Below are positions 28,424 through 42,404 of a stretch of 64,000 nt of DNA, piece by piece (the first letter of the stretch is position 1; the number at the start of each line of letters is the position of its first letter). This DNA is from Camelus dromedarius (taxonomy: Eukaryota): positions 24,244,001 through 24,308,000 of the forward strand of contig NC_087436.1 in assembly GCF_036321535.1 (NCBI RefSeq). The letters are read 5' to 3'. Position numbers and translations under genes: made by a program. The notes beneath the pieces were generated by a model, which made no database searches, was not told the origin of the DNA, and saw only the letters and a list, made by a program, of their open reading frames with translations.

Positions 28424-30233
28424 AAATTATCCTGAACTGATGAACTAAATTCACCATTTATCACATGGAAGAATGCCGAAATACAGAATCACAAAAAAAA
28501 GGAACTATGGACTCTAGATCCAGAATTGGCAGGCAGTTTTTTAAATAGTTTATAATGCCACTCCTGGTTACGACAGCTTGGTATAATTTGGCATTGCCAC
28601 CACATGGGATACGGGATATGGGTGAGTGTGAATGCTATTAGATAGGAGCAACTTAGAGGCAGTTATCCTAGGAAGAGAAGGGTGATGTACCTAACAGGTA
28701 AGAATGGTATATAGTGAATAGCAGTCCATGACACTGGGTGTCTTCCACTAGGCTCCTCCCAAATAAAGCAGTCAGAAGCACTGTCTGTAGGCATGATTGT
28801 ACAACCGTTCAGCTACAAATAATTAGACTTCAACTTGACATATGGCAATAAAGCAGCCATTATAGGCTAGACACAATGAAAACATGGTAATATATAAGGA
28901 GAACTGGTACAAGAATTCTGCTCAATGGGATACTCCTTACTAGACTGTGACTAAAACCAAACCTCTCTAAGAACTCTAATGCAAGATATGAAGCGTTGTA
29001 AGAAAAAAGTCATTAAGTCAAGTCATGGGACAGAGAGAAAGCAAGTGGAAAGGATGATGGTGGCAGTCAGTGACAGTGGTAAAAGTGGTAATAGGAAAGA
29101 AAAAAAAAGTCATAAAGATGGAAAAGGTGATATTATCCCTGAGTAATTTTTGCAATTTTCCATGAGGCCTGAAAGGTCAATTTTCTATGCTTCTTCACAT
29201 CCCTGTATATTCTTCCAATAAACTCCCAACAATAAAAAGGTATTTGTTCCTGAAAAGTACACAATTATTTGTCAATATATCTTTGTGAAATCCAACATTT
29301 CTCTACAGTTCTTACCAATAACAATACTGCTATGAGACATTACTGTCCATCTGCTCTGGTGTAATTCCAAAAATATTTTCTAACTCTATTCATTGGGCAT
29401 TATAACTTCCCTTAATTATAAAGCAGTAAATGATTTTGAATTTTGAATTTTTGAATTGAGTTACTACTGAGGCTAAAACTGAACTCTACGACAAGGTGTT
29501 TATTACTATATTGTTTTAACCTAGTAAATTATGCAATTATTTTCACATGAAGTAGGAGGATGTCAAAGGCCAGAAGAAAAGTGCTTATGTTATTAATCAA
29601 AATGATTCATGTGATAATAAACACCTTGATTTCAACTTAACACTTTAAAATGGCAGGTAAGATTTTGGCTTGGGGGAAAAATACTTACGGATTTTTAAGA
29701 CATTAGGTCAAACAGCAAGTACAATAAAGAAATACTGTAAACTGACAACATGGCTAAGTGTGAGAGATGCACACTTAGAACTCACAAGCTCAATTTAGGC
29801 TAGATACAAAAACTTGAATGTTACCGTGCGTAACAGACACTATATTCTTTACACGTATTTTCTCTAGTCCTAACATCTCTGCCCGGTAGAGATTTTTTCT
29901 AGTCCCATTTTATAGTTAAGAAAATCATCAGAGAGGTTAGACAAAGTGTCCAAGATACACAGTGAAGTGTAAGAGCTAATATGTGGACCCAGATCAGAAT
30001 GACTCAAAAGCCAAAACCTTCCACTGTATCATACTAGATAACTCTGGATTAGAATCACTATTTCAAGTTTTAAATGTGAAAAAAAAGAAAGAAAGAGAGA
30101 GAGAGAAGGAAAGAGAGAGAGAATACTAACATTTAAAATGACTTTTTACTCTAAAATCTATGATCGAGTTAGCTGAATAAGACCATATAAAATGACAATA
30201 TCCTGTCATGGAATTTTTTACTCAACTGTGCTA

Positions 30234-30503
<270 letters not shown>

Positions 30504-33017
30504 TTACTGTGTAATATTTCCATACAAACTCCCATGAAAAATATTTCATGTTACCCATGTTCATGTGCCTATGTGTACCTTGCCTTTTAACAGTGCTACA
30601 TTTGACAGAAAAACACTGTAACATCTTCAAAAAAAAATTTTTAAACCTGGTGGAGACCTGCTATGGCAACAGCAAAGCACAAAAGCATGAGTTCCTGCAA
30701 TTCCAGTAATATAACAAGCTACTTCATACCTCTACAGCATTATATACTATGCTTTCTCTTAGTCGTGCCTTTTCTAATCTTGTTGAACAGTGCTGCCACA
30801 TGCCTCAGATATTCTGCTCGTCACAGTACTTTGTTTATACATCTGTCTTCTCACTTAGACTGTGAGTTTCTTGCTAGGAAAGACCTTGTCTTACCCATAA
30901 CCTCTGTATTCTCTAGGCCTAGCAACATACCAAACCACACAGAAAACACTCAAATATTTGCTGATGGAATAATGGGTAACTATATGGTAAATTTAAAATT
31001 TGACATTAAAAATTAACAATATCCCTTGAGCTGAGAAAAATGCTGTAACAAAGTGGAAAATCTGTACTGTTTAGACTTAGAGCAATAAATCTGAAAGCTG
31101 TATGTTCAATCAATATTTATTTGGAAAATATCTGTTAATAATGAGAAATGAAAATAGTCATTCTAACACTGTGGTGATTTTAAAACATACCCACAAATTC
31201 TTCCCTTCCAAAGTAAAGCCTATTTACCCTACCCTTAAACGTGGATTATACTTACTGACTCATTTCTAACTAATAAAATATGGCAGAAATGAAAAGTATA
31301 GGACATCCAAGATTAGGACATAAAAGCACTGTGGATTTCTCCTTGCTTTCCCCTGGATCACTCAGAGGAAGCCAGCTATCATGTTGTGAAGAAACCCAAA
31401 CCACCTTATGGGAAGACCCATGTGGCCAACAACAGGCCTCTGGCCTTGAGATTAAGCCATCATGGAAGCAGATTCTCCAACCTAGGTCAATCCTTCAGGT
31501 GCCTTGGCTGACATCTTGACTTCAACCTCCTGACAGAGACTGTCTTTCCAATCATACAGTTCGGTGATTTCTGAGTTCCTGGCCCACAGTAACTCTAGGA
31601 AATAAATGTTTGTATAAAGCCGCAAAGTGTAAGTAATTTGTTATGCAGCAACAGATAACCAACATACATTTTGATGCCTGAAAGTGGGGTGCTGCTGCAA
31701 TAAAAACCTAACATGGGGGAATGGCTCTGAAACCAGATTGGCAAAAGGTGGAAACCTTGGAGAAGAGCATTAATGGAGGCTTAAAGAGCCTCAGACTATT
31801 AAGAGATATATAGATTTTGAAGAGGCTGCAAGTGAGGGCTTAAAGTAAAGTGAGGAACACGTTATAGTTACGTAGAGGCAGACAGCTTAGCATCGCTTAT
31901 AAAATGTACCAAAGAACTGGGCCATCCAGCTAGGGGGATTTCCAGGCCAAAAGGAAGGGGTGGGAGTTCAAAGGTGGAACCTCATTCCTCTTGCTGCTTG
32001 TAGTTAAAAATGCAAGAGAAAGAAACTAAAGGAAGGAGGAGAGACTTGACCGTTTTGAAAATTCTCAGCCTCTCCAGAAATGGCTGCCAAGCAAAGATCA
32101 AATCCAGAGCGTTGCCAGGAAAACATGTCAAATGGGAAAGTGGAGAGTTTGGCTTTAAAATCTTTTGTTAGGACTCAGACTCAGAAAGATGGTGCCTCAG
32201 TGACTAGTCAAACAAAAAGCTCTCTTAAAAATTTTAAGGGTGTGACTCACAGATCCTCTCAATCAGACAAAAGACCTTTTAAGAAACTTAGAAATATTTG
32301 TCCTCTCACCAAAAGCTCAAGGTAGACAAGGATATCTGTGCATGTGAATTCAATAAGATTCACAAAAGAGCCATAAAATTCTAAAGAGAATTATAATGGC
32401 AGACACATAGCAAACCTGGAATGAAAGTAGCAGAGACAGTAGGAAATGAAAAGAAGCCTTTAGACCCCCCAAATTTTTGGAAGCAGATTAAAAAACTACT
32501 TAGCAGCAAACAAATGCTAACTTTCAAGAAAAAAGGATGATTCAGAAGTGGAACCAAGAACCCAGAGGACAGAGCCAAGAGCCATAAAGAATTATTTCTA
32601 GGTCTCGAGTCCTCATCAAAGAACTGCTAACCTGTACCCAACTGGACTTGAGAATGGAAATGAACCAGTAACTCCTGTGTGCCTCCAGTCTCTCCTCACC
32701 ACCCTTTTTTGAAAAAGAACATCTACAGTGGGTGCCCTTTTCCACTCTGACCACTTTATACTGAATAAGTAAATTGTCTCTTTGGTTCACAGATTTCGTA
32801 ACAAGAACTCTACTTGAAGAGCTATATTACGAACCATATTCAAGAAATTCGTTAGTACCTGCACCTCATTTATAAAACACTCTGGATTTTGAGCTAATGC
32901 TGTAATAGGATGAGACTTTTGGAGGCCTTGGGAGGGGCAGGTATATTTTGCATGAAAGAATAATGGAAGTTATTTGTGTCCAGAATGCAGAACATGGCAG
33001 TTAAAAATGAGTCTTTG

Positions 33018-33147
33018 GTTGAGGTCTATCCCGATGGGGCTTTTTCCGGAGACCTGCATTGTTGGAAATGCCTCATAGAGTAACTATGTGGTTTCCTTTA
33101 CTCACAGAACTACATGTTAGATCTGTGGAAAGAACTACAAGACAGAG
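33018..33147 (+). ncRNA. SNORA18: SNORA18 (ACA18) H/ACA snoRNA retrocopy
   Basis: GTTGAGGTCTATCCCGATGGGGCTTTT...CCTCATAGAGTAACT...CTTTACTCACAG...GTTAGATCTGTGG...ACAAGACAG matches recalled SNORA18; H box AGAGTA 33077-33082; ACA box 33142-33144; 130 nt. Confidence 0.85.
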
Positions 33148-33631
33148 CTGCTAAATAAGCTATGAAAAACCTAACAGTCAGACTTTTTTATCTTAGGTAT
33201 TGGCAATGATCAGTACTGTTCTAGGGTGTGATAAGCTTAGGAGTAAATGAACTTAATGCATATTTAGAGGGTGTCTGAAATTCAGAACCAGGCAGATCAA
33301 TCTTCCCTGACCCCAAATATGTAATAGTCCTGTAGTAAATTGCTTGAGAAAATTGGATCCCAAAGATTACAGGTGAGTTGTTTCTGAAGTGTGCTCATGT
33401 TCCACTGGAAATCAAAGAAGCCCAACTAAAAGAATTATGGGCTGACTGACAACTGTTGATTGACCAAAAATTATTGAAAGGGCTGCCTTGAAGATTATAT
33501 GACTCAGACATTCGAGGAACTAAGGGTTGATGGGCAATGGAAAGAATCAGAACATGTGTGAAATTCTTAAAAAATTTATTTACTTAAATTATGTTACACA
33601 ATAAAAAAAAACTCTTTACAAAAAAAAAAAA
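33018..33631 (+). pseudogene. snoRNA retroposon: SNORA18 + intron remainder + probable spliced host (TAF1D) non-coding exons + poly(A)
   Basis: CTAAC 33171-33175, pyrimidine tract and AG 33195-33196, AATAAA 33600-33605, A12 33620-33631, TSD agtctttg 33010-33017/33631-33638, TT|AAAA at 33001. Confidence 0.8.
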
Positions 33632-33724
33632 GTCTTTGATTCCCCTCCCCTACTCAAGTATAGGTTATACCTAGTGACCCACTTCTATCAATTAGAATGA
33701 GAAAGAAGTGATGAGGTGTTCCGT

Positions 33725-33905
33725 TAAGAGAACATTAAAGGTGCTGTGAGAGTATAAAATGAGAGCCTTTAGAGTCTGAAAATTTGAGAAGCAGATTTTA
33801 AAACTACTTAGCTGCAAACAGATGCTAACTTTCAAGATAAAAAAAGGATGATTCAGAAGGTAGAACCAAGAACCTGGAGGACAGAGCCAGAGGAAAATTC
33901 TACTT
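33725..33905 (+). mobile_element. Second MaLR internal fragment similar to 32410-32600
   Basis: aagcagatt..aaactacttagc.gcaaaca.atgctaactttcaaga..aaaaggatgattcagaag..gaaccaagaac...gaggacagagcca shared by both. Confidence 0.7.
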
Positions 33906-34030
33906 TGCTAGAGTGTGGGTCGGTGTATATGTATGTGTATGCATGTATATATGTGTATACACAGAAAATAACATCTGAATCTAGAAAACTCTACCCAGCC
34001 AAACTAACATACAAATTAGAAGGCAAAATA

Positions 34031-34160
34031 GGGGGAACGATATAGCTCAAGTGGTAGAGCACATGCTTAGTGTACACAAGGTCCTGGGTTCAATCCCCAG
34101 CACCACCTCCAAAAATAAAACAAATAAGTAAACCTAATTACCCACCCTGCTCAAAAAAAC
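34031..34160 (+). mobile_element. tRNA-derived SINE
   Basis: tatagctcaagtggtagagcacatgcttag...ggtcctgggttcaatcccc. Confidence 0.88.
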
Positions 34161-34337
34161 ATTGTACACCTAGAAAATTGAACATTTCACAGGGATACCC
34201 TTTGAAAAGAGGTAATCTTTGGGTAGGAGAAAACTGAAAAGGGATTTTCACATTTGCTAGGTATTTTTCTGAGTTGTTTCAACTCTGTACAGTGATAGTT
34301 AATTGTGTATTATTTGCATAATCTGAAGAAGTGGGAT

Positions 34338-36037
34338 GAGGATATTACACTTAACATATATGCACCCAATATATGAGCACCTAAATATATAAAGCAAATA
34401 CTAACAGACATAAAGGGAGAAACTGATGGGAACATATAGTAGGAGATGTTAACACCTCATTAACATCATTAGACTGATCTTCCAGACAGAAAATCAATAA
34501 GGCAACAGAGATACTAAATGGCACAACCGAACAATTGGACTTGGTTGATATTTTTAGGACATTACATTCTCCAAAAAACAAAACATATATTCTTTTCAGG
34601 TGTGCATGGAACATTCTCTAGAATAGATCATACACTTGGGCACAAAGGAAGCCTCAACAAATTTAAGAGGATAGAAATTATTTCAAGCATCTTTTCTGAC
34701 CACAATGCTGTGAAACTAGAAACCAACCACAGAAAAACAAAGGAGAAAAAAAAACTGCATGAAAAGTAAACAACATGCTATTAAAAAACCAATGGGTCAA
34801 CAATGAAATCAAAGAAGAAACTAAAAAATACTTTGAGACGAATGACAATGAAAACACAATCACACAAAATCTATGGGATGCAGCAAAAGCAGTCCTAAGA
34901 GGGAAGTTCATAGTGATATAGGCCTTCCTCAAAAAACAAGAACAATCTCAAGTAAACAACCTAACCTATCACTTAAAAGAATTAGGAAAAGAAGAGCAAA
35001 CCAAACCTAAAGTCAGCAGAAAGAAGGAAATAATAAAGATCAGGGAGGAAATAAAGAAAATAGAGATTAAAAAAAAAAAAGAAAAAACTCAATTAAACCA
35101 AGAACTGCTTTTTTGAAAGAGTGAACAAAATTGACAATGGCCAGGCTCACTAAGAAGAAAAGAGAAAGAGCACAAATAAACAAAATAAGACAGGAAAATG
35201 GAGAAATTATAACCAATACTACAGAAATATAAAAAACTGTAAGAGAACACTATGAACAACTATATGAGAACAAACTGGACAACTCAGAAGAAATGGACAA
35301 GTTTCTGGAAACCTACAGCCCACCAAGACTGAATCAAGAAGAAACAAAGCACATGGAACAGACCAATAACTAGAAATTAGATGGAATCAGCAATAAAAAA
35401 AACCTCCCTACAAACAAAAGTCTAGGACCAAACAGCTTCACTGGGGAATTCTAACACACATACAGAGAAGAACTCATACTGATCATTCCCAAACTCTTCC
35501 AAAAGACTGAAAAGAAGGGAATACTTCCAAACTCATTCTATGAAGCCAAATCAATGTGATACACCACATCAACAAAAGAAAGGACAAAAATCACATGGCC
35601 ATTGCAACAAATGCAGAAAAAGCATTTGATAAAATTCAATACCCATTTATGATTAAAAAAAAAAAAAACTCTTACCAAAATGGGTATAGAGGGAACATAT
35701 CTCAACATAATAAAAGCTATTTATGACAAACCCACAGCCAGCATAATACTCAATGATGAAAAACTGAAAGCCTCCCCACTAAAATCTGGAACAAGACAAG
35801 GATGCCCACTCTCACCACTTATATTCAACATCGTTTTGGAAGTCCTAGCCACAGCAATCAGGCAAGAAAAAGAAATAAAAAGGGATCCAAATTGGAAGAG
35901 AAGAGGTAAAATTGTCACTATATGCTGATGACATGATACTATATATAAAAAACCCTAAAAGCTCCACACAAAAACTACTAGTGCTAATAAAACAATTTGT
36001 CAAGGTAGATACAGGATTAACATACAGAAATCAGTTG
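34338..36037 (+). mobile_element. Decayed L1 ORF2 fragment (endonuclease to RT)
   Basis: ORF track [32 protein letters not shown] codons at 35921-35932; frameshifts and stops. Confidence 0.93.
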
Positions 36038-36763
36038 AAGAAGAGGTTTAAGACAGGAGGAATAACAGGAAGGTAAACAAGAGAAGCCAGGGGATCACAG
36101 CTTCTCACTGTAGATTCTCACTGGCATTTTCTTTCTAGGTGAAGAAGCAACAATAGGTAGACAGAGATTCAAGTAAAATCTGTGCAAGGGCTTCAGTGTG
36201 TGTCCTTAGAAACTTCTAAACTGTTCTTAGGCAGTAAGAAAAATTTAATTAAAAAGTAACAAAAGAATCTAAAGGTCTTTAGCAGGAGGAAGGATACAGA
36301 AAATAACCAACCATAACCTCAGAAGAGGAATAAACTCAGGACTGAAGAAAAAAATCTGACATATTTTTCATGCCCCAAAGCCTATAACATTTTTGCTATG
36401 AATAAGTCACAAAATATGTGGACAAACAATTAACTTTTATCTTTCTGCATGCCTGGGTCACTTTTATTCTGAGATCCTTTCCCAAATAATTATATAAGGA
36501 AGATTTCTCCCTACACATTCTGATACCTTGCCATAAAAATGGCATGTAAAAAACTGGTCAAACGATAAGTCACTGAGCAATTTTACTGGTTTAATTCTAA
36601 GCTGAGTTCCCCCCAACCCCCTTGTCTGAAGGTGACTGACAGCAATGACTAAATTAGTCATGCTGCTAATTTACCTCCAATGGTTAATTTAGCACATCAG
36701 AAATATCTTTTCTCTTGACATAAAGAAAAAAAGACAATGAAATGTGCACTAAGCTGAGTTTTA

Positions 36764-36901
36764 TCTTATTTTATTTTTCATTGAAGTATAGTTGATTTAC
36801 AATGTTATTTTTTGCTATACAGCATAAAGATTCAGTTATACATATATATTCTTTTTCATATTTTATCAGTATAGGTTATTACAAGATATTGAAAATAGTT
36901 C
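36764..36901 (-). mobile_element. Short L1 3' terminus with 15-bp TSD
   Basis: attgaagtatagttgatttacaatgtt; TSD ctaagctgagtttta 36749-36763/36902-36916. Confidence 0.85.
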
Positions 36902-37041
36902 CTAAGCTGAGTTTTAATGTTTAAGCAATACTTATCTTTTAGTAGGTTAATTATAAATTACTATTAAGAGGAAAAAATAACTAGAAAAACTGATGGCCAA
37001 CACTAATGTAAGGTTCAAACACTAATATAAAATTAGCAGTT

Positions 37042-38325
37042 TAACTGGACAGCCACATGTAAAAGAATGAAATTAGAACATTCTCTAACACCATATACAA
37101 AAATAAACTCAAAATGGATTAAAGACCTAAATGTAAGATTGGATACTCTAAAACTCCCAGAGGAAAATATAGGCAGAACACTCTTTGACATAAACTGCAA
37201 CAAATAAACAAATGGGACCTAATTAAACTTAAAAGCTTTTGCACAGAAAAGGAAACCATAAACAAAATGAAGAGATAATGTATGGAATGGGAGAAAATAT
37301 TTGCAAACAATGAGACCAACAAAGGATTAATTTCCAAAATACACAAGTAGCTCATAATGCTTAATATCAAAAAAACCCAACCAACCAAGGAGGGAGGATA
37401 CAGCTCAAGATAGAGCACATGCTTAGCATGCACAAGGTCTTGGGTTCAATCCCCAGTACCTCCATTAAAATAAACAAACAAACCAATTAACACAATCCCC
37501 CCCCAAATTTTTTTTAAATTTTTTAAATCTACAAATAATAAATGCTGGAGAGGATGTGGAGAAAAGGGAACCCTCCCACACTGCTGGTGGGAATATAAAC
37601 TGGTGCAGCTACTAAGGAAAACAATGGAGATTCCTTAAAAGACTAAAAATAGAATTACCATACAATCCAGTGATCTCACTCCTGGGCATAATATGGAGAA
37701 AACTAACAAAAAGACATGTGCACCCCAATGTTCATAGCTGTACTGTTCACAATAGCCAAGACATGAAAGCAACCTAAATGTCCATCAACAGATAAATGAA
37801 TAAAAAAGATGTGGTATATATATATATAATGAAACATTACTCAGCCATAAAAAAAAAATGAAAAAAATGCTATCTGCAGCAGCATGAATGGACCTTCAGA
37901 TTATCATATAAGTGAAGTAAGACACAGAAAGACAAATATTGTATGATTAAATTAAATTAAAATTCCACATGTGGAATTTTAGGGAAAAAAAATAAAGGAA
38001 CTTATTTACAAAAAGAAAGACTCACAGACATAGCAAACAAACTATGGTTACCAAAGGGGAAGGTGGGGCAGATAAATTAGGAATCTGGGATTAACATATA
38101 CACACTACTAAATATAAAATAAACAATAAAGACCTACTGTGTAGCATGAAGAACTATACTCGATATTTTATAATAACCTATAATGGAAAATAATCCAAAA
38201 AAGAAACTACATCTACATATACATACACACATATATGTATATGTATAACTGAATCACTCTGCTTTACACCTGAAACTAATAAAACATTGTAAATCAACTG
38301 TATCTTAGTAAAAAAACATGTTTTA
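37042..38325 (+). mobile_element. 5'-truncated L1 (ORF2 3' part + 3' UTR) with nested SINE
   Basis: aactggacagccacatgtaaaagaatgaaa...caaaatggattaaagac...cctgaaactaat..cattgtaaatcaact; flanking tagcagtt repeat. Confidence 0.9.
37389..37505 (+). mobile_element. tRNA-derived SINE nested in L1
   Basis: gatacagctcaagatagagcacatgcttagcatgcacaaggtcttgggttcaatcccc. Confidence 0.85.
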
Positions 38326-38582
38326 AGTAGCAGTTCACAGCATTGTAGTTAACAATTTATAGTATTGGGTAAATTAGATATTACATGTAAAATTCATGAA
38401 ATTCAACTCGTTAAAAGCTAATGACCAGTTAGTTAAATTCTTGCTTAACGTTTTAAAGAGTAACATAAACAGTATTTTTCTTTTGTTGCTTAGAGAAATT
38501 CATAAAATGGCCATCACCATTTTCTAAAGCATGTATAACATCTTCCTACAAGGTGCTTAATAAAAAGCTCAGGAAAAATCTA

Positions 38583-38858
<276 letters not shown>

Positions 38859-39586
38859 CTAACAAAATTATCTTTTTTATTATACTGAAGTATAGCAATA
38901 GCAAAGAAAACTACAAAAATCAAAGCCTTGGAATTACTTGTGTACTAGCCATGAAAAAATTAGTAAAATTTGAAAATATTAAAAATTACAGTAATTCAAT
39001 ATAAATATTTTTCATTTCAAATAAACAAATAAAATTGGCCATCACCTAGCACAGTATATGGCATACATCAGGCATTGAATTATTTGTTGAATGAAAGGAA
39101 AACAAAACGCTTTAAGATATATGTGTGTATGTGTGTGTGCGTGTGTTTATTTATTCCTTCCTTCCTTCATCATACTTAAATAAAGCTATCATGACAAACC
39201 TATCAGAATTTATTAACATACATAATGGTGCAGTACAGTAGATTTACACATTTAACATTCAGTTTTATATTTAGAACAATCTGCAGATGATTACAAATAT
39301 GCGGTATTTGGTAATTTTTTTGAGAATACAAATCTGAATTCTATGCAATGTAATGCTAGTAGGTGGCAGAGTAATCAATTAGCAGGTAAATCAAGCAACA
39401 GAAACTAACACATTTCAACTAAACTCAGGGGTTCACGACTTGGTGGTAGAAAAAGCAAGAAATGACGCAAATTATTTTTATATATAAAAAACACAAAAAA
39501 TGAAAGACAACTAGTCGTGACAAAAATGAACCAAAAGTGAAGAGGACTAGGAAAAGAATAAATTTCTCAGAAAATGAGGAATTACA

Positions 39587-39735
39587 GGGGGTGGTACAGC
39601 TCAAGTGGTAGAGTGCATGCTCAGCATGCAGGAGGTCCTGGGTTCAATCCCCAGTACTTCATCTAAAAATAAATAAATAAATAGAGCTAATTACTAACCC
39701 CTCCAAATAAAATAAAATCTTTGGGAAAAAAAAAA
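39587..39735 (+). mobile_element. tRNA-derived SINE with 18-bp TSD
   Basis: TSD agaaaatgaggaattaca 39569-39586/39736-39753. Confidence 0.9.
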
Positions 39736-40180
39736 AGAAAATGAGGAATTACATACATTACAGAAATACTGTAAAAAAGCTTCAAAGCTCAAATCTAATA
39801 TATATCAAGGGTATATGGCACCACCAATCAACCCCACAACAAACAGGTTTCTAGGATAACTAATAAGCTTTGTATGCATTAATGAAGAAGGGGCAACAAT
39901 TAGAAAGAAACATGGAAAAATCAATGAAAACATAGCTAAAATACAAACTTTCCATTAAGTTTTCCACATGAATTCTGCCAGAAAGAGGAGACAATACGGA
40001 AGTCGTTGAATATAACTCTATATTTCCATTTTATAAAATTTGAAAAATGTGAATACGATTTTTAGAAATAATTTTCTGTGCATTATAAAGTGGGAGAAAA
40101 GAAAAAAATTACAGAATATTCCCAAAATCTTCAACATATAACAGAATGAAATGAGAAATTCTTATGTATGGAGTACTTAC

Positions 40181-40309
40181 TCTTTCAATCTCATGACATT
40201 TCTTAAGTGCTTCACCAAATTTATTCATTGCCTTATAAGCTTGGGCACATTCTGTCTGGAACCACATGCATTGCATTTCATTCAAATTTTCAACTGCTGA
40301 TGTTCCTTC
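40181..40309 (-). CDS. NAA15: NAA15 exon 13 ([43 protein letters not shown])
   Basis: ctag|GAA, AGA|gtaagt; 129 nt. Confidence 0.96.
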
Positions 40310-40703
40310 CTAGATGAAAAGCACACACATTCAAGACAATTTCTTACCAAATACACTATTCCACCATAGGATTTAAGAAGGAAAGATGGTCAACTGGTTT
40401 GAATTCTTTCAAAATAGTTTTCTATTTTTTTAAACCATTCTCAGAGTAAGAGGGAAGAGTTAATATGTGAAAGAAATTAGAATTGTATTTCTAAAACAAT
40501 GTTAAAGTACCCTTGTAAATGATTAATCAAAAAAGGTCTACATAATTGGTGTTAGAGAGTAACATAAGAAATAGGACACTAGCCATAACAGATAATTAAC
40601 AGTAGTTCCCTTTACCCCTAAAACGGTCAACTAAACGTATATCAATATAAATCAAACTTAAAAAACCCAATGTATAACCATATAAGAAGAAAATGATGTT
40701 TTA

Positions 40704-41009
<306 letters not shown>

Positions 41010-42134
41010 CTAACATTAACAGGGCACAAAAGCACAATAAATCAGTCAGTACACAGATTTTACTATGCAGGTAGCTAGTTTCTTGTTCATAAATCACTAA
41101 AACACAAATGGAAGAAAAGGTAATCTTCAATTTCTTACAATCATAATCAATGTAGATGCATACATTCTATTGCAATATTAAGTTCTGATACCTTTGTATC
41201 ATGTAGAATATAAGCTCTCTGATAGTAAAGACTTGTTTTGAAAATTTTGTCTACTATTGTAATCTTACTGACTACACATACAACACTGCCTGGCATATAG
41301 TGAATACTCAAAAGTCATGGCTGAATCAAAGAATAAATAACAATCAAAATCTTTAAGTCAGAACAACATAATTCAATGAGAAAAGGATGGCCAAATTTCT
41401 ACTCTAAAGGAACCATGGAAACATTATGATTAGGACCACTAGCGGACATTTCACAATGATCTTCATTCTAATTCATCTATCTGGTCGATTTGGCAAAGCC
41501 ACAAAACTAATAAGAATTACCTGGCTTTTAGAAAGTGCTTTTAAAACATTACTTAATTTCAATATTTTTGGTAAATAAATTATTGGTTTACAATCTCTTC
41601 CCTGAGAGCTTTTATTACTAAACTGTATTTGTATTAAGACAGAAAAGAGCTAATTTTATTTTAAGATGATGTTAGAACATATGACTAGATTTTCAAGCAG
41701 GACCCAGGAGTTGAAAAGGCAACAGAAACAGTATGCAGAATTCACAGTAGAATCTTCAGTTTCATTTTATTAAGATTACCAGATACTGACATAGGATCAC
41801 ACTGAAATGTTAACAGAAACAAACATTTCACAGCAAATATAATTACTTTTATCTATACGCTTGGTACTTAAAACCAAGAAAATAACCAGATATGTGTGTA
41901 TCTGTGAATGTATGAGAATATATAGTATGAATAACCATAGATATGAATAACCATCTGTATTTATGCATGTATGTGTTCGCATATATATAGCTATAGATGA
42001 ATGAGCTAATCAGCATGACCAGAACATGTCTAAAAGTAATCAGAGTGAGAAATATACTATATTTGTTATTCCATATTTTGTGAGGTATAAAATATGTCAT
42101 TTTTCTTACAGCAGCTTGAATCTAGAACATTTTA

Positions 42135-42404
<270 letters not shown>

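Follow-up and report, generated by a model that had tools for sequence, protein, structure and literature searches.

The question raised by this 64,000-nucleotide stretch of the Camelus dromedarius genome (contig NC_087436.1, positions 24,244,001 to 24,308,000; contig C1 of the 2.3-Gb assembly in our numbering, and hereafter the window) is how a copy of the small nucleolar RNA (snoRNA) SNORA18 came to be joined, at its 3' side, to the unused end of an intron, a series of exons and a poly(A) tail. The answer developed here from comparisons of DNA sequence is that the element at 33018-33631 is almost certainly a SNORA18 Type-3 snoRNA retroposon (snoRT), inserted by the L1 machinery from a snoRNA-ended, spliced and polyadenylated RNA of the gene TAF1D.

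The snoRNA copy at 33018-33147 on the plus strand matches Rfam RF00425 with 129.6 bits (gathering score 70, E 4e-23) over model positions 1-132, and the Rfam alignment shows both boxes, H (AGAGTA) and ACA. Relative to its parent it carries four substitutions in the 5' hairpin, where the alignment marks mispairs, and an identical 3' hairpin. A first-pass annotation made from the letters alone had proposed this full-length SNORA18 with its two boxes, an intron-like stretch with CTAAC, a pyrimidine tract and an AG at 33196, and then AATAAA, twelve A residues and a flanking target-site duplication (TSD) at an L1-type site; each of these is found where it had been placed, and the intron-like stretch proves to be contiguous with the parental intron. 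The parts of the element and of its insertion site, all on the plus strand, are the following.

33001-33002 (TT) and 33003-33007 (A-run), plus: L1 endonuclease-type target TT/AAAAA, at the start of the 5' TSD (direct sequence reading).
33003-33017, plus: 5' TSD AAAAATGAGTCTTTG, with the exact core AGTCTTTG at 33010-33017 (sequence reading, repeat search and TSD-finding script).
33018-33147, plus: SNORA18 H/ACA copy, full length from nucleotide (nt) 1 (Rfam RF00425).
33148-33196, plus: retained 3' remainder of the host intron, 49 nt (contiguous with the parental intron on contig C12).
33171-33175, plus: branch-like CTAAC (sequence reading).
33183-33194, plus: pyrimidine tract (sequence reading).
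33195-33196, plus: unused 3' splice-site AG (sequence reading; acceptor in the SNORA40-type copies L006 and L038).
33197-33240, plus: TAF1D downstream exon A, 44 nt, with parental donor GTAAGT (spliced mapping).
33241-33269, plus: exon B, 29 nt (34 nt in the present parent), with SNORD5 in the removed preceding intron (spliced mapping and Rfam, as for exons C to G).
33270-33325, plus: exon C, 56 nt, with SNORA8 in the removed preceding intron.
33326-33372, plus: exon D, 47 nt, with SNORA1 in the removed preceding intron.
33373-33439, plus: exon E, 67 nt (62 nt in the parent), with SNORD6 (Rfam name snoZ40) in the removed preceding intron; the parental donor of E is of the GC-AG type.
33440-33480, plus: exon F, 41 nt, with SNORA32 in the removed preceding intron.
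33481-33619, plus: terminal exon G, ending at the parental cleavage site (...TTTAC/A), with SNORA25 in the removed preceding intron (3' ends of the copies also compared).
33600-33605, plus: AATAAA (sequence reading).
33620-33631, plus: poly(A) tail A12, its first A maybe templated and its last maybe part of the TSD (sequence reading).
33624-33638, plus: 3' TSD AAAAAAAAGTCTTTG, which in its 15-nt form shares letters with the A-run; exact core AGTCTTTG at 33631-33638 (sequence reading, repeat search and TSD-finding script).

The 15-nt TSDs at 33003-33017 and 33624-33638 (AAAAATGAGTCTTTG and AAAAAAAAGTCTTTG) differ by two mismatches, and a repeat search reports an 18-nt pair spanning them (33003-33020 and 33624-33641) at 83%. 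Between the AG and the poly(A) lie about 423 nt, and an Rfam scan of the window scored no second snoRNA in this tail.

The source of the tail was sought with a genome search in which the query was the 602-nt unit at 33018-33619. At least 44 match rows were returned, so that the roughly 400 nt which the first-pass annotation had called unique are in fact repeated in the same genome. The match on contig C12 covers query positions 1-224 only, at 96% identity, and the 30 kb around it were then analysed. Rfam places eight snoRNAs there on one strand, in the order SNORA40, SNORA18, SNORD5, SNORA8, SNORA1, snoZ40 (which is SNORD6), SNORA32 and SNORA25, and Pfam finds the TAF1D domain (PF15333) in two upstream open frames, or exons, of the same strand (E 2e-56 and 1e-33). 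Because this order of eight snoRNAs is combined with TAF1D upstream on the same strand, the C12 locus is the TAF1D host gene and the parent of the window element; the host and the snoRNA order named in the first-pass annotation are thus confirmed.

By BLAST and a junction search the window element maps to this locus as seven colinear blocks, of which the first contains SNORA18, the intron remainder and exon A, contiguous in the parent, while exons B to G follow in turn and the last block stops at the parental AATAAA and cleavage site. Six introns have been removed, at five GT-AG junctions and one GC-AG junction, and each of them holds exactly one downstream snoRNA. Because the tail maps in this way as seven blocks at canonical splice sites, it consists of spliced host exons and not of read-through DNA, which agrees with the expectation that it would map downstream of the parental SNORA18 with the intervening introns spliced out. 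The Rfam E-value and the fact that all seven blocks fall in order on a single locus, with canonical splice sites between them, exclude a chance match.

The intron remainder measures 47 nt in the parent and 49 nt in the window copy, and the two are colinear up to the AG acceptor. Directly after the ACA box the parental SNORA18 (L013 9823-9952, minus strand) reads ACAGCT, where the window and all six extra copies printed for comparison read ACAGAG. An insertion of AG in the window was considered and rejected, since its presence in all six copies marks ACAGAG as ancestral; the parent itself lost these two nucleotides at the 3' edge of the snoRNA after the youngest copies arose. On the opposite strand, about 6 kb past the TAF1D poly(A) site (L013 570-916, plus), there are C/D-box matches to snoU2_19 and snoU2-30 (106.5 and 92 bits), a pair that presumably forms a SCARNA9-like unit, as beside human TAF1D.

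The RNA that would account for this structure can be described in some detail. The template was almost certainly a TAF1D RNA transcribed from C12 whose 5' end coincided with that of mature SNORA18. Of the host intron it retained the 47-49 nt that separate the snoRNA from the 3' splice site; the six downstream snoRNA-bearing introns had been correctly spliced from it, and its 3' end had been formed by cleavage and polyadenylation at the usual TAF1D site. Its 5' end would have arisen when an assembled H/ACA small nucleolar ribonucleoprotein (snoRNP) blocked the 5'-to-3' exonucleolytic trimming of a cleaved or intron-retaining transcript, and insertion followed by target-primed reverse transcription with the L1 machinery at TT/AAAAA, the L1 proteins presumably acting in trans. 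A polyadenylated template with its 5' end at the snoRNP boundary had already been suggested by the first-pass annotation, and the start at nt 1, the parental poly(A) site and the A12 tail support it.

The element is one member of a large family. Besides the window and the parent, 44 further loci were examined, 38 of them from the 602-nt genome search and six from a genome search with Rfam SNORA18, which gave at least 39 matches, 32 over the cut-off. These 44 loci comprise 38 SNORA18 type-3 copies, three SNORA18 type-2 copies and three SNORA40 type-3 copies. When the flanks are clustered, the 38 SNORA18 type-3 loci reduce to 28 independent events, or at least 29 when the window is included, and the comparison indicates that the same RNA form was retrocopied at least 29 independent times over a long period. 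The idea that the window holds a germline fossil of a TAF1D-derived RNA therefore stands as far as the retrocopy is concerned and fails as to its being a single one. With gaps left out of account, the type-3 loci are 81.5% to 97.5% identical to the spliced parent, the window copy at 96.9% (572/590); given its 3.1% mismatch to the parent and a typical neutral rate, the window insertion may, as a rough guess, be younger than about 15 million years. The two sides of each junction are joined in nearly all copies that reach it, and TSDs were recognised by script in 13 of the 29 listed events.

Two sets of loci were merged by the comparison of flanks. L007 and L008 are duplicates of one insertion, and ten loci (L011, L016-L019, L030-L033 and L035) represent one insertion beside an L1 3' end that was then spread by segmental duplication. 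L1 3' transduction or template switching was considered for these ten and rejected, since within groups both flanks are common and the junction is the same. This old insertion, spread to ten places or more, starts at SNORA18 nt 13 directly after the L1 3' end; its copies lie on C5 (two), C35, C33 and C31 (L011, L016-L019) and on C98, C35 (two), C11 and C22 (L030-L033, L035), most of them within a few Mb of contig ends, with identities of 90-100% inside each of two groups and about 80% between the groups.

The three type-2 copies end within the intron or at its edge: in L044 the copy stops just past CTAAC and A21 and the TSD CAGCATGGT come next, in L045 the poly(A) is attached precisely at the AG, and in L046 the end lies close to the 3' splice site. 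The structures of L044-L046 were taken from BLAST and sequence reading; lenient local alignment over-extends on type-2 copies. Their ends mark the branch region and the 3' end of the intron.

The other snoRNAs of the host provide an internal comparison. Rfam searches of the genome for the six H/ACA snoRNAs gave the following counts, each including the parent.

SNORA40: at least 4 genome matches.
SNORA18: at least 39 genome matches.
SNORA8: at least 1 genome match.
SNORA1: at least 5 genome matches.
SNORA32: at least 1 genome match.
SNORA25: at least 10 genome matches.

The three SNORA40 type-3 copies (L006, L034 and L038) all have their first nucleotide no more than 3 nt from SNORA40 nt 1, and go on with the SNORA40 intron remainder and an exon of 38 nt. 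This exon is joined to exon A, in L006 and L038, at the very AG that is kept in the window copy; L034 has an insertion that disrupts the junction region. Because SNORA40-type copies are spliced exactly at that AG, the 3' splice site that the window's template had left unused, as had been proposed, is a genuine acceptor. Three of the non-parental SNORA1 copies are type-3 and one is type-2; two of these copies, L059 and L061, begin at SNORA1 nt 1 to within a single nucleotide. The type-2 copy L059 (G000:C5:34760257-34760392) scores 161.4 bits in Rfam against 159.8 for the parental SNORA1, and continues with 115 nt of parental intron, poly(A) and a 16-nt TSD. Nine non-parental SNORA25 loci are listed, of which L056 could not be aligned to the parental region and the other eight belong to type-1 or type-2. 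The TAF1D coding domain was found at only one other place in the genome, riddled with stops (14 of 14 candidates scored). Since this single coding-region retrocopy compares with at least 29 SNORA18 type-3 events, snoRNA-started RNAs were the main retrocopied product of TAF1D, the SNORA18-started form above all.

In 16 of the 29 listed events the copy starts at snoRNA nt 1-3, and none of the 19 loci that start there (17 type-3 and two type-2) has more than two contiguous nucleotides of the parental upstream intron. Several points nevertheless weigh against the explanation given above. The 5' end is not uniform, since 13 of the 29 listed events start past nt 3, at nt 10-89 where the start could be mapped (L037 is unmappable); three of the 29 events (L039, L041 and L043) are poorly aligned; the copy counts from the genome search and from the Rfam search, with about 50 candidates scored per Rfam search, are lower bounds; and in the window itself the exact TSD is only 8 nt long, 15 nt being reached with two mismatches. 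The deeper starts fit 5' truncation. A recurrent secondary 5' end lies at SNORA18 nt 12-13, where the upper stem of the 5' hairpin has its base; three independent type-3 insertions begin there, namely L020, L027 and the one behind the ten-locus group.

If truncation is common, then the window element could itself be a 5'-truncated processed pseudogene of an intron-retaining TAF1D mRNA, on which the reverse transcriptase stopped at the 5' edge of the snoRNA, so that a snoRNA-ended RNA never existed. Copies made by L1 are often 5'-truncated, as the 13 later starts would illustrate, and TAF1D isoforms that retain introns containing H/ACA snoRNAs have been reported from human cells in a preprint (bioRxiv 10.1101/2021.01.21.427585). 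We regard this explanation as very unlikely, because it does not predict that 16 of 29 listed events begin at nt 1-3 with at most two contiguous nucleotides of upstream intron in 19 of 19 loci, or that equally precise starts occur at SNORA40 (3 of 3) and SNORA1 (L059 and L061). In addition, an arrest caused by structure should occur on the hairpin's 3' side and not at the last 5' nucleotide, and the existence of only one coding-region retrocopy implies that full-length TAF1D mRNAs are rarely copied.

A snoRNA-ended template could also have been transcribed from an earlier retrocopy and not from the gene, and the differences among copies bear on this point. Compared with the parent, older copies are longer by 7 nt in exon A and by 5 nt in exon F. 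Both stretches are missing from the parent and from the youngest copies, namely the window copy, L002, L003 and L006, and L005 has the exon A deletion. Because the older copies keep nucleotides that are absent from the parent and from the youngest copies, the parent changed over time, with the copies sampling it at different dates. At the 3' end, cleavage followed TTTACA in some copies and TTTACACTT or CTTTTTGTAG in others, so that at least three sites were used, and each of these three is colinear with the genomic sequence of the parent. These multiple cleavage sites, taken together with the parent-derived deletions in the youngest copies, indicate that the copies come from the parent gene and not from one another.

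The junctions vary as well. A recurrent difference of 4-5 nt at the junction of exons E and F was considered as the product of an alternative donor and rejected, since the sequences show a deletion within exon F in the parent lineage; the GCAA extension that would be expected of a downstream GT donor at this junction is seen in L036 only. At the junction of exons C and D a form shorter by 5 nt occurs in at least six loci and fits an upstream GTAAT donor, for which an evolutionary shift of the donor and its alternative use are inseparable.

Against this background, the proposal that the template was a second-generation one, that is, an earlier master retrocopy or an L1 3' transduction in place of the TAF1D gene, is more improbable still than an intron-retaining mRNA. 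It would draw on the position of ten loci directly after an L1 3' end and on the closeness of the window to L002 (544/562), which is about as great as its closeness to the parent (572/590). The window, however, has the parent's two derived deletions, and no sequence from any other locus lies between its TSDs; L002 is 5'-truncated at nt 29 and extends further at its 3' end than the window does, so that neither of the two can have templated the other; and the ten L1-adjoining loci are segmental duplicates of a single insertion.

The surroundings of the window element bear on whether it is a gene at all. Four stop-to-stop frames on the minus strand encode parts of the NatA auxiliary subunit domain.

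42132-42404, minus: NatA_aux_su (PF12569) stop-to-stop frame (Pfam, above gathering score).
40701-41009, minus: NatA_aux_su (PF12569) frame (Pfam, above gathering score).
38580-38858, minus: NatA_aux_su (PF12569) frame (Pfam, above gathering score).
30231-30503, minus: NatA_aux_su (PF12569) frame (Pfam, 27.9 bits, below gathering score).
35653-35928: RVT_1, a fragment of an L1 reverse transcriptase, in the same intron of about 8 kb as the SNORA18 element (Pfam).

The four NatA_aux_su frames lie in order (30231-42404) and represent a NatA-auxiliary-subunit gene of the NAA15/NAA16 type, in an AT-rich region (GC about 0.30-0.44). The SNORA18 element lies antisense in the intron of about 8 kb between the exons at 38580-38858 and 30231-30503. 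The two hairpins and the H and ACA boxes that a functional H/ACA snoRNA needs are present (129.6 bits against a gathering score of 70); a functional intronic snoRNA needs also to lie on the strand of its host gene, and here the copy is on the plus strand and the NatA exons are on the minus strand. That the window element arose by segmental duplication of part of TAF1D at the DNA level, or is a live gene making functional SNORA18, deserves practically no credence, for although other copies have been duplicated segmentally (L007/L008 and the ten-locus group) and its SNORA18 keeps both boxes and a score of 129.6 bits, the element's introns are absent, it has poly(A) and a TSD, its flanks match no other copy, it could not be processed from the pre-mRNA of a gene to which it is antisense, and its 5' hairpin carries four substitutions with marked mispairs. 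Because of this antisense position within the intron, the window copy is probably inert.

The same intron contains a second snoRNA copy, a SNORA19 type-1 snoRT at 36620-36749 on the minus strand (flanks 36600-36790; 115.5 bits), which is in sense orientation and, being so, could in principle be processed from the NatA-auxiliary-subunit transcript. Its TSD (AACTCAGCTTA) is 11 nt long, a G-rich tail (GGGGGTTGGGGGG) takes the place of poly(A), and the insertion point lies immediately behind the 3' end of an L1. SNORA19 has eight matches in the genome, the best being a pair 1 kb apart on contig C8 that is probably the parent.

Why SNORA18 in particular should have been copied so often is a separate question. 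In the parent the distance from SNORA18 to the 3' splice site (47 nt) is the shortest among the six H/ACA snoRNAs of the host, the others lying 70-289 nt away, and the branch-like CTAAC begins only about 24 nt after SNORA18; it is a matter of speculation that this short spacing was the cause of the success of SNORA18 as a retrocopied form. A broader proposal, which is tentative and to which we would give slightly more doubt than belief, is that in this lineage the SNORA18 intron has for tens of millions of years and up to recent times yielded, and still yields today, an abundant germline RNA that is snoRNP-capped, keeps the intron remainder and is otherwise spliced and polyadenylated (possibly cytoplasmic and dyskerin-bound, and like the 5' snoRNA-ended, polyadenylated RNAs known as SPAs); that this form, and not the mRNA, served as the L1 template; and that SNORA18 dominates here, where ACA40 does in human, because splicing of this intron became weaker in this lineage.

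For annotation, the element should be recorded as a SNORA18 type-3 snoRT and not as a snoRNA gene, and the other 38 or so SNORA18-like Rfam matches in the genome are mostly fossils of the same kind. Taken as a whole, the family amounts to an unusually dense fossil record of one non-canonical transcript form, which gives precise 5' ends at three snoRNAs of one host, ends close to the branch point and at the 3' splice site among the type-2 copies, and information on alternative donor use, on microheterogeneity of the poly(A) site and on the dates of changes in the parent gene. No new mechanism emerges here. The family does support the view that polyadenylated RNAs of snoRNA host genes, when capped by a snoRNP, persist long enough to meet the L1 machinery, and the SNORA18 intron of TAF1D would be a good place to look for such an RNA.

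The class to which the element belongs has been known in mammals since 2006, and what is new here is the SNORA18/TAF1D member and the unusually large size of its family in this genome. A literature search found no SNORA18 type-3 family in a non-human mammal, which is not proof of absence. In what follows we take MGC5306, a name used in the human literature, to be TAF1D.

Type-3 snoRTs were defined by Weber 2006 (PLoS Genet, PMC1687206) with U70/RPL10 as the prototype; the pre-mRNA was proposed there to be cut by an endonuclease and trimmed back as far as the snoRNA, with splicing and polyadenylation proceeding normally downstream. The architecture of the window element is exactly that of the class: Rfam model position 1 falls at 33018, directly after the TSD and with at most two possibly parental nucleotides upstream; the entire downstream intron sequence is kept, 33148-33196 being colinear with the parental 47-nt remainder to the AG; processed host exons follow, seven of them with six junctions at C12; and the A-rich tail begins at the host poly(A) site, with a TSD and the ttAAAA target that is also the consensus reported for snoRTs (PMC1687206). 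The element shares with the U70/RPL10 retroposons the 5'-matured snoRNA, the full intron remainder, the processed exons, the poly(A), the TSD and ttAAAA, and in both cases the snoRNA-started form is the main retrocopy route of the host gene, accounting for 30 of 42 human RPL10 pseudogenes (PMC1687206). It differs in its snoRNA and host, and in having seven exons and six removed snoRNA introns in place of two RPL10 exons. The term ACA18 does not occur in the main text of PMC1687206; it may be listed in Table 3 or in the supplementary figures.

In humans, exon-containing ACA40 retrogenes derived from MGC5306 and four ACA18 retrogenes (ACA18b-e) were described by Luo and Li (NAR 2007, PMC1802619). 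The balance there is the reverse of that found here, since ACA40 dominates in humans with 13 copies against four of ACA18 (PMC1802619), whereas the present genome has at least 38 extra SNORA18 Rfam matches against at least three of SNORA40. Human SPAs resemble the template proposed here in having a 5' end defined by a snoRNP and a normal poly(A) 3' end, and differ from it in that they are RNAs observed in cells, while the present form is known from DNA fossils alone. A closer neighbour still is the human TAF1D sno-lncRNA (a long non-coding RNA with snoRNA ends) that extends from SNORA18 to SNORD5 (Zhang et al. 2014, BMC Genomics, PMC4234469), which comes from the same locus, has SNORA18 at its 5' end and runs past the same intron remainder; it ends at SNORD5 and is not polyadenylated, whereas the template of the window element was spliced past SNORD5 and polyadenylated.

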